NCBI RefSeq assembly: GCF_003790525.1
Contig: NZ_CP033635.1
Direction: 5' to 3' (one strand)
DNA length: 64,000 bases
Source: Escherichia coli
Lineage (GTDB): Bacteria > Pseudomonadota > Gammaproteobacteria > Enterobacterales > Enterobacteriaceae
Part shown: piece by piece, positions 39,118 to 41,553 of the stretch
How positions within the stretch are numbered: the stretch's first letter is position 1
How the letters are laid out: every line of letters starts with the position of its first letter
Program-made: the position numbers and the translations under genes
The notes under the pieces: model-generated
The model's database searches: none
Told to the model about the DNA's origin: nothing
Seen by the model: the letters and a program-made list of their open reading frames with translations, nothing else

Positions 39118-40428
39118 ATGTTTGATTCGACTTTAAATCCGTTATGGCAGCGTTACATCCTCGCCGTTCAGGAGGAAGTAAAACCGGCGCTGGGATGTAC
39201 TGAACCGATTTCACTGGCGCTGGCGGCGGCGGTTGCTGCGGCAGAACTGGAAGGTCCGGTTGAACGTGTAGAAGCCTGGGTTTCGCCAAATCTGATGAAG
39301 AACGGTCTGGGCGTCACCGTTCCCGGCACGGGAATGGTGGGGCTGCCGATTGCGGCGGCGCTGGGAGCGTTAGGTGGAAATGCTAACGCCGGGCTGGAAG
39401 TGCTGAAAGATGCAACTGCGCAGGCAATTGCCGATGCCAAAGCACTGCTGGCGGCGGGGAAAGTCTCAGTTAAGATCCAGGAACCTTGCGATGAAATCCT
39501 CTTCTCACGCGCCAAAGTCTGGAACGGTGAGAAGTGGGCGTGTGTCACCATTGTCGGCGGGCATACCAACATTGTGCATATTGAGACGCACAATGGTGTG
39601 GTGTTTACCCAGCAGGCGTGTGTGACAGAGGGCGAGCAAGAGTCGCCGCTGACGGTGCTTTCCAGGACGACGCTGGCTGAGATCCTGAAGTTCGTCAATG
39701 AAGTCCCGTTTGCGGCGATCCGCTTTATTCTCGATTCCGCGAAGTTAAATTGCGCGTTATCGCAGGAAGGCTTGAGCGGTAACTGGGGGCTGCATATTGG
39801 CGCGACGCTGGAAAAACAGTGCGCGCGCGGCTTGCTGGCGAAAGATCTCTCTTCATCCATTGTGATTCGTACCAGCGCGGCATCCGATGCGCGTATGGGC
39901 GGCGCTACGCTTCCGGCAATGAGTAACTCCGGCTCGGGTAACCAGGGGATCACTGCAACAATGCCTGTGGTGGTGGTAGCAGAACACTTCGGGGCCGATG
40001 ATGAACGGCTGGCGCGTGCGCTGATGCTTTCGCATTTGAGCGCGATTTACATCCATAACCAGTTACCGCGTTTGTCTGCGCTTTGTGCCGCAACGACCGC
40101 AGCAATGGGGGCCGCCGCCGGGATGGCATGGCTGGTGGATGGGCGTTATGAAACCATTTCGATGGCGATCAGCAGTATGATCGGCGATGTCAGCGGCATG
40201 ATTTGCGATGGTGCGTCGAACAGCTGCGCGATGAAGGTTTCGACCAGTGCTTCGGCTGCGTGGAAAGCGGTGTTAATGGCGCTGGATGATACCGCAGTGA
40301 CCGGCAATGAAGGGATTGTGGCGCATGATGTTGAGCAGTCGATTGCCAACCTGTGTGCGTTAGCAAGCCATTCGATGCAGCAAACGGATCGGCAGATTAT
40401 CGAGATTATGGCGAGCAAGGCCAGATAA
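39118..40428 (+). CDS. cyuA: L-cysteine desulfidase CyuA (YhaM, UPF0597 family, 436 aa)
   Basis: [38 protein letters not shown]... Confidence 0.92.
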
Positions 40429-40447
40429 TCGCCAGGTTTTGGGGAGC

Positions 40448-40552
40448 GTGCCGGATGCGATGCTGGCGCATCTTGTCCGGCCTACGGGGTGCGCAATTTG
40501 TTGATGTTGTTGTGTTTTGTAGGCCGGATAAGGCGTTTACGCCACATCCGGC
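40448..40552. repeat. REP/BIME element pair downstream of cyuA
   Basis: gccggatgcgatgctggcgcatcttgtccggcctac ... tgtaggccggataaggcgtttacgccacatccggc. Confidence 0.8.
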
Positions 40553-40560
40553 ACTTGTCT

Positions 40561-40728
40561 TTACGCGGTAGCTTCATCCTCGGCTAAACGCGTTTCAGCA
40601 TCCGCGACGATGGCTTCCAGCTCGCTCAACATCTCTTCATAGCCAAAATTTTTGGCGGTGCGAGAAGGTTCTTTCGCCACCACGGGCTTCACTGGCTGAC
40701 GCTTTTTGGCCGATTTTTTACTCATCAT
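40561..40728 (-). CDS. yhaL: Small protein YhaL (about 54-55 aa); below the length cutoff of the supplied ORF track
   Basis: Manual minus-strand translation: MMSKKSAKKRQPVKPVVAKEPSRTAKNFGYEEMLSELEAIVADAETRLAEDEATA; 19 bp downstream of yhaK. Confidence 0.7.
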   Translation of the reverse strand: MMSKKSAKKRQPVKPVVAKEPSRTAKNFGYEEMLSELEAIVADAETRLAEDEATA

Positions 40729-40747
40729 CATCTCCCTGTAAAAACAA

Positions 40748-41449
40748 CTAGACAGGCAAATCTATCAGCAAAGCGCGCAGTGGGGAATCGGCAACCAGCG
40801 TAATGTTAGCCTCGTCACGAATAAACGCCCCATCACCGCAGGTCAGCGCCGCTTTCTCTTCATGATGCGTAAGCGCATGAAATTTCCCGTGAATCGATTG
40901 CAAATACGCGCGTGGCCCATGCAACTGGAAATTCGCACTTTCGCCTTTGTCGAGCACGATATGGTGCAGCCACACTTGCTGGCGCAATTGCAGGCTTCCC
41001 ATCCCACCTTCTGGCGAGGCGATTAATTGCTGCTTGCTCATATTAAGCGCCAGTTTTTGAATCAGCGGATTCTCTCGTTGTGGGCAGGCATCCAGCCAAA
41101 GTTGCATTCGCGTTAACGATTTGTCTTTGCTGAGATTGTGTTCGCTATAGCTGACACCCGGCTGGGTAGAGAGCAGCAACACCTCACCGGCGCTGGCCTG
41201 AACATGATTGCCTTCGCTGTCGCGATACTCAGCTTCTCCATCCAGAATCACATTTAAAATATCGACTTTGGGATAGGTTCGCGGCTGAAAGGCGGCACCT
41301 GGGGCCAGCACTTCCTGGTTAAGCACGCGCAGGGAGGCATAGCCTAACAATTTCGGGTCGAAGTAGTGTCCAAAGGAAAAAGTATACCGGGCCTGCAACC
41401 ATCCGTAGTCTGCTTGTCCACACTGCCTGGCAGTTCGGGTAGTAATCAT
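40748..41449 (-). CDS. yhaK: Pirin-like bicupin protein YhaK (233 aa)
   Basis: ORF 233 aa; divergent from yhaJ. Confidence 0.9.
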   Translation of the reverse strand: MITTRTARQCGQADYGWLQARYTFSFGHYFDPKLLGYASLRVLNQEVLAPGAAFQPRTYPKVDILNVILDGEAEYRDSEGNHVQASAGEVLLLSTQPGVSYSEHNLSKDKSLTRMQLWLDACPQRENPLIQKLALNMSKQQLIASPEGGMGSLQLRQQVWLHHIVLDKGESANFQLHGPRAYLQSIHGKFHALTHHEEKAALTCGDGAFIRDEANITLVADSPLRALLIDLPV

Positions 41450-41553
41450 AATTCTTGACCTCTCTTTACTTCCTTTTATGGTAAGGGGCTGGACGCTACA
41501 TTGTTAGCCAGATATTCTGCCCGGTATGTTCAAATTTCCTGAATGAGAACGAA

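Follow-up and report, generated by a model that had tools for sequence, protein, structure and literature searches.

YhaL, an annotated 54-residue protein of Escherichia coli encoded next to yhaK: a conserved gene, a near-invariant acidic helix and a putative accessory role in the YhaJ-controlled module

E. coli has a general class of small accessory proteins whose genes lie immediately 3' of that for the enzyme or regulator they modulate. Regulation at the yhaJ-yhaK locus involves the LysR-type protein YhaJ, which binds and activates the yhaK promoter. This promoter is responsive to hydroquinone and to metabolites of DNT, and deletion of yhaK results in an induction of yqjF that is 66-fold higher (PMC5031710, PMC7315121). 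The neighbouring gene yhaL is an uncharacterised member of the y-ome that has been described as "followed by repeat sites" (PMC11551758). Another point of reference is XseB, the small subunit of exonuclease VII, which is ubiquitous in bacteria and forms a helical hairpin that grips a helix of XseA in a three-helix bundle by means of a loose hydrophobic pattern (PMC10835039).

The stretch of DNA that was analysed, referred to here as the window, comprises 64,000 nucleotides from E. coli. An initial annotation of the window called attention to a 55-codon minus-strand ORF, named it yhaL, and described it as missed by the six-frame ORF track. The features of the locus are as follows.

40561..40725, minus strand: yhaL coding sequence, 54 codons followed by a TAA stop codon at 40563-40561; the RefSeq product is "protein YhaL", 54 aa.
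40732..40736, minus strand: Shine-Dalgarno sequence GGGAG, 6 nt upstream of the third yhaL ATG.
40748..41449, minus strand: yhaK, encoding a pirin-family bicupin of 233 aa with Pirin and Pirin_C_2 domains; first gene of the yhaK-yhaL unit.
41450..41553, no strand assigned: intergenic region between yhaK and yhaJ (PMC7315121, PMC5031710).
41554..42450, plus strand: yhaJ, encoding the LysR-type activator of yhaK, with HTH_1 and LysR_substrate domains (PMC5031710).
40419..40566, no strand assigned: two REP-type palindromic elements (BIME), inverted repeats that fill the convergent yhaL-cyuA intergenic region.

Three tandem in-frame ATG codons, at 40731, 40728 and 40725 on the minus strand, could serve as the yhaL start, and reading from the first of these gives an ORF (40561..40731) of 56 aa. 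The 55-residue peptide first reported is exact if translation begins at 40728, and its position 19 bp downstream of yhaK is likewise accurate, as the yhaK stop codon occupies 40750-40748 and leaves a gap of 19 nt to that ATG. The conserved and annotated start is, however, the third ATG at 40725, which gives 54 codons; no other yhaL start is shared by the relatives. Two ATG codons are present here in other Escherichia clades and one in Salmonella, while the start codon is GTG in Klebsiella and Raoultella and TTG in the Citrobacter freundii group. The full ATG-ATG-ATG run (40723-40731) occurs in E. coli, one Escherichia sp. and E. albertii. RefSeq yhaL is 54 aa in K-12 (WP_001345966.1) as well as in strain SC516, which is 100% identical to the window here and has the same allele (WP_022646154.1).

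The flagged ORF is the known and already annotated gene yhaL, and nothing is new at the gene level. Of 5426 complete E. coli genomes searched by megablast with positions 40400-41500, 5405 gave matches that cover at least 80% of the query. The genes annotated there are yhaK, of the pirin family, yhaL ("protein YhaL") and cyuA. The median of six matched places per genome in this search is due to the REP-type palindromes in the query. YhaL of the window is 94-96% identical over its full length to E. coli clusters named "protein YhaL". Compared with YhaL of K-12, whose gene also sits between yhaK and cyuA, 52 of 54 residues are identical (S5L and S21A differ), which is no difference of substance. 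As far as databases are concerned yhaL is not a missed gene: RefSeq annotates it, and it falls below the length filter of the supplied ORF track. The 60-aa cutoff suspected for that track agrees with the default of the ORF lister, and the expectation that the cutoff hides other small proteins was borne out by at least one more annotated coding sequence below 60 aa in the window. This second sequence, at 48184-48267 on the minus strand just upstream of yqjA, has a GTG start and encodes 27 aa; it is a "hypothetical protein" in strain SC516 (WP_212734158.1) and is intact in the window (VLMYQTRKTYQNSNNIAVVHHLKPAWR). The practical lesson is that an ORF filter set at 60 aa conceals annotated small genes. 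YhaL itself is an uncharacterised y-ome protein whose gene appears in every E. coli annotation, and the novelty of the family-level observations reported here is modest.

Elsewhere in the window, at about 49573-54685 as placed by mapping to positions 2009069-2014181 of NZ_CP025048.1, exuT and exuR of the matching strain flank a CS1-type fimbrial cluster of four genes. These encode a CfaE/CblD tip adhesin, a TcfC-like usher, a major subunit and a chaperone. In K-12 exuT and exuR are adjacent, so the cluster looks like a strain-variable insertion.

An ORF of this size is unremarkable by itself. The window holds 286 six-frame ORFs of at least 54 aa, 100 of them in the range of 54-70 aa, so ORF length alone is uninformative and the case for a gene depends on comparative evidence. 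A phyletic scan of one genome per species in GTDB r220 found YhaL relatives in about 90 species, all from genera of Enterobacteriaceae, which include Escherichia, Salmonella, Citrobacter, Klebsiella, Raoultella, Kosakonia, Kluyvera and Buttiauxella, as well as Cedecea, Trabulsiella, Pluralibacter, Franconibacter, Atlantibacter, Phytobacter and others. The reading frame is intact at all 81 loci, which represent more than 20 genera of Enterobacteriaceae, and frame disruption in related genomes, the outcome that the initial annotation had set against a real gene, was seen nowhere across these genera. Conservation is nevertheless incomplete, in that yhaL is cleanly absent from Yokenella, Scandinavium and Pseudescherichia. 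Where orthologues differ in the length of the N-terminal half, they do so by multiples of three. An ATG, GTG or TTG codon stands ahead of the S-K-K N-terminus at the 81 loci; among the 78 loci from which the yhaK-yhaL pair was cleanly extracted, the start codon is ATG in 45, GTG in 23 and TTG in 10, and most have a GGAG-type motif 6-12 nt upstream of the start.

Diversity by codon position and pN/pS were computed over the 23-codon core of yhaL. Nucleotide diversity at codon positions 1, 2 and 3 is 0.14, 0.13 and 0.52, respectively, and pN/pS is 0.21 in frame (pS 0.68, which is near saturation; pN 0.145); of the five other frames, four give values of 1.5-2.3. The YhaL peptide is under purifying selection, and the identification of yhaL as a genuine small protein gene is upheld by this selection together with the RefSeq annotation.

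Alternatively, the ORF could have arisen by chance, or could be translated only for an effect in cis, for example to stabilise the mRNA or to interfere with transcription of the convergent gene cyuA. Points in keeping with this are the abundance of chance ORFs of similar size, the inclusion of yhaL-cyuA in a published list of convergent overlapping transcript pairs, and the three genera that have a hairpin terminator in place of yhaL; protein-level evidence for YhaL was also not retrieved from the literature, and a search on the locus tag b3107 yielded nothing relevant. These points are outweighed by conservation of the amino-acid sequence, with at least 10 near-invariant residues across more than 20 genera while synonymous sites approach saturation, by conservation of the start-codon class and the Shine-Dalgarno sequence, and by retention of yhaL where the downstream neighbour differs from cyuA. 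Because the peptide is under purifying selection, a spurious or purely cis-acting ORF is effectively excluded and has a negligible probability. We infer that YhaL is translated.

In the genomic context, each of the 80 related loci has yhaL immediately after yhaK on its 3' side and yhaJ divergent, which is also the layout in the window, while the gene downstream of yhaL varies between genera (cyuA-cyuP in the window). YhaK is 233 aa at all 78 loci with a cleanly extracted pair, with identities mostly of 79-96%. For YhaJ, identity across the genera of Enterobacteriaceae is 90-100% at nearly all loci, compared with about 80% for its target YhaK. The gap between the yhaK stop codon and yhaL is 0-35 nt, with a median of 24 nt in 78 species, and therefore leaves no room for a terminator plus a promoter; a scan of the junction for such elements found no terminators and no convincing internal promoter. 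Co-expression of yhaL with the pirin-like YhaK, as originally proposed, is thus probable from the short gap, the synteny and an operon table that places the two genes together.

Transcriptomic data have shown that yhaL is up-regulated specifically in long-term stationary phase. The corresponding gene list does not contain yhaK, which hints at separate control of yhaL or at a differentially stable 3' fragment protected by REP elements. An Rfam scan of the yhaL locus returned REP-derived, sub-threshold matches only and no sRNA or riboswitch. The matches, to the REP-derived family naRNA4, are at 40419-40482 and 40522-40566, and the second of these reaches the yhaL stop codon. REP palindromes could stabilise a 3' mRNA fragment that contains yhaL. 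In three Salmonella libraries Tn5 insertions are depleted in yhaL, although the gene is only 165 bp long.

An exhaustive profile search of 1.84 billion representative proteins gave 76 YhaL-family matches at E<=1e-3, essentially all of them proteins of 45-70 aa of the same kind. YhaL and 18 orthologues matched no family above threshold in Pfam, NCBIfam, PADLOC or PHROGs; weak matches to RecQ-1-like_HTH and to a GyrA fusion were dismissed as chance. The protein of the window falls into two halves.

40648..40725, minus strand: YhaL codons 1-26, disordered Lys/Arg-rich N-terminal half beginning with MSKK, net charge +8.
40564..40647, minus strand: YhaL codons 27-54, near-invariant acidic amphipathic helix FGYEEMLSELEAIVADAETRLAEDEATA, net charge -8.

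Based on AlphaFold2 and the family alignment, residues 1-28 are predicted to be disordered (pLDDT 60-78), and AlphaFold2 predicts a single uninterrupted helix from residue 29 to residue 53 (pLDDT ~95), at which the protein ends. The acidic helical C-terminus described by the initial annotation accordingly corresponds to a confidently predicted helix. The N-terminal region varies between genera in sequence and in length (22-41 aa). The C-terminal core follows the consensus [FL]-G-[YF]-[ED]-[ED]-M-L-x-E-L-E-A-I-V-x-[DE]-A-x-x-R-L-A-E-E-E in family alignments and is present in the window protein (FGYEEMLSELEAIVADAETRL) as the pattern FGYEEMLSELEAIVxDAExRLAEEE, with a net charge of -8. Residues M32, L33, E35, L36, E37, A38, I39, V40, A43 and R46 are invariant or nearly so. 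Near-invariance extends to all faces of the helix, and since both the hydrophobic stripe and the exposed residues E35, E37 and R46 are invariant, the helix appears to be wholly constrained by an interface. Judged from this conservation pattern, the acidic C-terminal helix is probably the functional element of YhaL and the Lys-rich tail secondary, and it is plausible that the helix binds another protein. The helix is closer to YhaJ than to YhaK in its degree of conservation.

Two further observations concern the sequences of the family. The last residue of YhaL, which follows an acidic run, is Ala in 65 of 78 species, and the protein ends in Ala-Ala in 39 of 78 (window positions 40564-40569); such an ending resembles the C-terminal, ssrA-like degrons of ClpXP and is a tentative lead. 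Three database "variants" of YhaL (P0064, P0083 and P0102, from the sources lgn and ena) show systematic changes of Ala to Val, Pro to Phe or Leu, and Thr to Ile, for example MSKKLVKKCQFVVKFVV...ELEVIVVDVEVWLVEEEVVV. Such changes are the mark of C-to-T conversion throughout a genome, and the sequences probably stem from assemblies of bisulfite-treated or deaminated reads and do not represent real alleles.

From the Lys-rich N-terminus and the acidic helical C-terminus, the initial annotation had proposed a factor that binds nucleic acids or protein, and the nucleic-acid option hinges on the N-terminus. YhaL could contact DNA or RNA through this tail and use the helix, which is amphipathic and could self-associate, for oligomerisation. 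The N-terminal half carries a net charge of +8, and despite the turnover of its sequence the net charge of the first 12 residues is +3 or more in 69 of 78 species and +1 or lower in the other 9, and 47 of 78 proteins begin with MSKK. Within the protein, conservation is lowest in this basic tail, though, which is neutral or acidic in about 10 of the 78 species (for example Kosakonia, and Franconibacter at locus L060) in which the helix is perfect. The acidic character of the helix is in comparison universal, at -4 to -10 in the 78 species, and the whole protein of the window is net neutral (residues 1-26 carry +8, residues 27-54 carry -8). No nucleic-acid-binding family was matched by YhaL or the 18 orthologues in the family libraries. 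A-rich codons immediately after the start favour translation initiation in E. coli, which could explain the MSKK start without a role in binding. The fast evolution of the tail and its loss of basic charge in some species speak against the original reading, and the idea is weakened further because the helix appears to be the functional element and the tail secondary. Binding of nucleic acids by YhaL is unlikely.

The helix has a local likeness to XseB, for which the sequence used was exactly that of PDB 8TXR chain i. YhaL residues 27-42 align with residues 9-24 of XseB, which belong to helix 1, and hydrophobic positions are matched at Y29/F11, L33/L15, L36/L18, I39/I21 and V40/V22 (YhaL/XseB). 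The helix-1 motif F-E-x-x-L-x-E-L-E-x-I-V of XseB is found in YhaL. BLASTP of YhaL against XseB gave no matches, and the likeness emerges only from Smith-Waterman alignment with shuffles and from profile methods. The Smith-Waterman score is 43, a value reached by 13-15 of 5000 shuffles. Alignment of the YhaL family to enterobacterial XseB with hhalign gave a probability of 65% and a score of 25.8, compared with a null of mean 9.2, standard deviation 2 and maximum 17.6 in 400 column shuffles, and with 9.6-9.8 for reversed profiles. Sub-threshold matches to NCBIfam models of XseB were obtained for 13 of 18 YhaL orthologues (best E 2.5e-4) and for none of 10 reversed or shuffled controls. The helix of YhaL and helix 1 of XseB thus share a motif that is statistically non-random, and the likeness, local as it is, suggests by analogy that the YhaL helix packs in a helical bundle.

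Membership of YhaL in the XseB (Exonuc_VII_S) family was considered and rejected. The best NCBIfam score is 14.3 bits, below family cut-offs of 71-92, and Pfam PF02609 (Exonuc_VII_S) gave no match to YhaL at E<=10. YhaL has one helix and lacks the Gly turn, in contrast to the two-helix hairpin of XseB with its S-G-x-L-x-L-E-E turn; its gene neighbourhood is different, and it has no particular affinity to the model of enterobacterial XseB. An origin of yhaL by recent duplication of enterobacterial xseB was dropped as well, as there is no sign of one: NF002137, the model of E. coli XseB itself, is not among the YhaL matches.

It is nonetheless conceivable that YhaL is an XseB-derived single-helix mimic that binds the XseA stalk or XseB and tunes exonuclease VII, and hence DNA-protein crosslink repair, while the quinone-stress regulon of YhaJ is active. 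Besides the alignment statistics, this would fit the correspondence between the hydrophobic core of XseB helix 1 and invariant positions of YhaL, the name "exonuclease VII small subunit" given to one YhaL orthologue by the JGI pipeline, and the fact that XseB needs just a loose hydrophobic helix pattern (PMC10835039). A yhaL nonsense allele also arose in an ofloxacin-evolved line. Weighing against it, the match spans only 13-16 columns, scores far below the family cut-offs and does not include the E. coli XseB model; YhaL has neither the second helix nor the turn; and yhaL is not linked to xseA or xseB in the genome. Many unrelated mutations were present in the evolved lines, and a link of yhaL to fluoroquinolones was discarded since the yhaL deletion is not among the strains with altered ofloxacin survival. 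Tuning of exonuclease VII by YhaL is accordingly improbable. Slightly less probable still is the specific form in which YhaL, as a single-helix relic or mimic of the small subunit, was recruited into the YhaJ regulon of quinone and nitroaromatic stress and, once induced, would insert into, or compete for, XseB sites on the XseA stalk. If it were true, quinone stress would be coupled to repair of DNA-protein crosslinks and YhaL would be a previously unrecognised regulator of exonuclease VII. The likeness to XseB is not taken here as evidence that YhaL acts on this enzyme.

A partner encoded at the same locus is the preferred reading, and the tightness of the linkage between yhaL and yhaK bears on it. 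The linkage was also followed in the converse direction, starting from YhaK homologues instead of YhaL. A yhaL gene follows yhaK in Cronobacter and in Klebsiella aerogenes. In Yokenella, Scandinavium and Pseudescherichia, an intact yhaJ-yhaK pair is followed directly by a hairpin and a convergent cyuA, and no ELEAIV-like motif occurs in the 3.7 kb of these loci. One metagenomic lineage has yhaJ (84% identical) beside a yhaL-like ORF of 47 aa with its own Shine-Dalgarno sequence, without yhaK.

Positions 2203-2252 of L091, L092 and L093 (Yokenella, Scandinavium, Pseudescherichia): hairpin terminator in place of yhaL.
Positions 2847-3144 of L086: 47-aa yhaL-like ORF of the lineage that lacks yhaK.

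The helix of this yhaL-like protein is degraded and truncated (LGIEEILNEVEAIVAHSVAKVA). This decay in a lineage without yhaK would fit a dependence on YhaK, although it is a single case, and the contigs L086 and L087 are identical, which makes their comparison uninformative on selection in the variant without yhaK. Since three genera keep yhaJ-yhaK without yhaL, YhaK has no need of YhaL, and since one lineage has a yhaL-like ORF without yhaK, YhaJ or a protein encoded elsewhere could be the partner. That either gene has been lost naturally without the other indicates that YhaL is an accessory protein and not an obligate subunit of YhaK. YhaL is thus tied to the YhaJ/YhaK quinone-stress module yet is genetically separable from YhaK.

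The best explanation of these observations, and one that can be held with good confidence, is that yhaL is a real and presumably translated gene of a YhaJ-controlled yhaKL unit and would encode an accessory helix that packs against a partner. The gene is conserved and syntenic, and its product is helical by prediction. YhaL would be a translated cytoplasmic protein of 54 aa restricted to Enterobacteriaceae, encoded by the promoter-distal gene of the yhaK-yhaL transcription unit, which the divergent regulator YhaJ would turn on in response to quinol and nitroaromatic metabolites. Its working part would be the C-terminal acidic amphipathic helix of about 25 residues, preceded by an N-terminal half that is probably a disordered and usually basic tail. 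A hydrophobic stripe formed by Y29, L33, L36, I39/V40, A43 and L47 would most likely pack on partner helices in a small bundle, in a manner likened to helix 1 of XseB in exonuclease VII. The most likely role of YhaL, we infer, is that of an accessory partner-binding helix of the YhaJ-controlled quinone/nitro-stress module, and it would act there as a dispensable modulator rather than an obligate subunit. Genomic linkage makes this module the likeliest place for the putative partner. Docking of the helix on YhaK or YhaJ themselves is a tentative suggestion, somewhat short of an even chance; no interaction data for YhaL were found in the searchable literature. For experimenters, the near-invariant acidic helix of ~25 residues, and not the Lys-rich tail, offers the handle as the probable functional unit.

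Compared with the closest described proteins, YhaL and XseB (PF02609; PDB 8TXR, 1VP7) are both small, acidic and helical, and in both a short linker comes after an N-terminal M-x-K-K. The ~80 aa of XseB form a hairpin of two helices, which has a conserved Gly turn and is extended at the C-terminus, whereas YhaL ends after one helix; XseB is ubiquitous in bacteria while YhaL is confined to Enterobacteriaceae, and the gene neighbourhoods differ. YhaL is more like the small accessory proteins of E. coli in that it is ~50 aa long, has its own Shine-Dalgarno sequence, would be co-transcribed with a larger gene, and combines one conserved helix with a narrow taxonomic range. The partner of YhaL is putative. 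YhaL also differs from most characterised small proteins of E. coli in that it has no predicted membrane segment and its helix is acidic.
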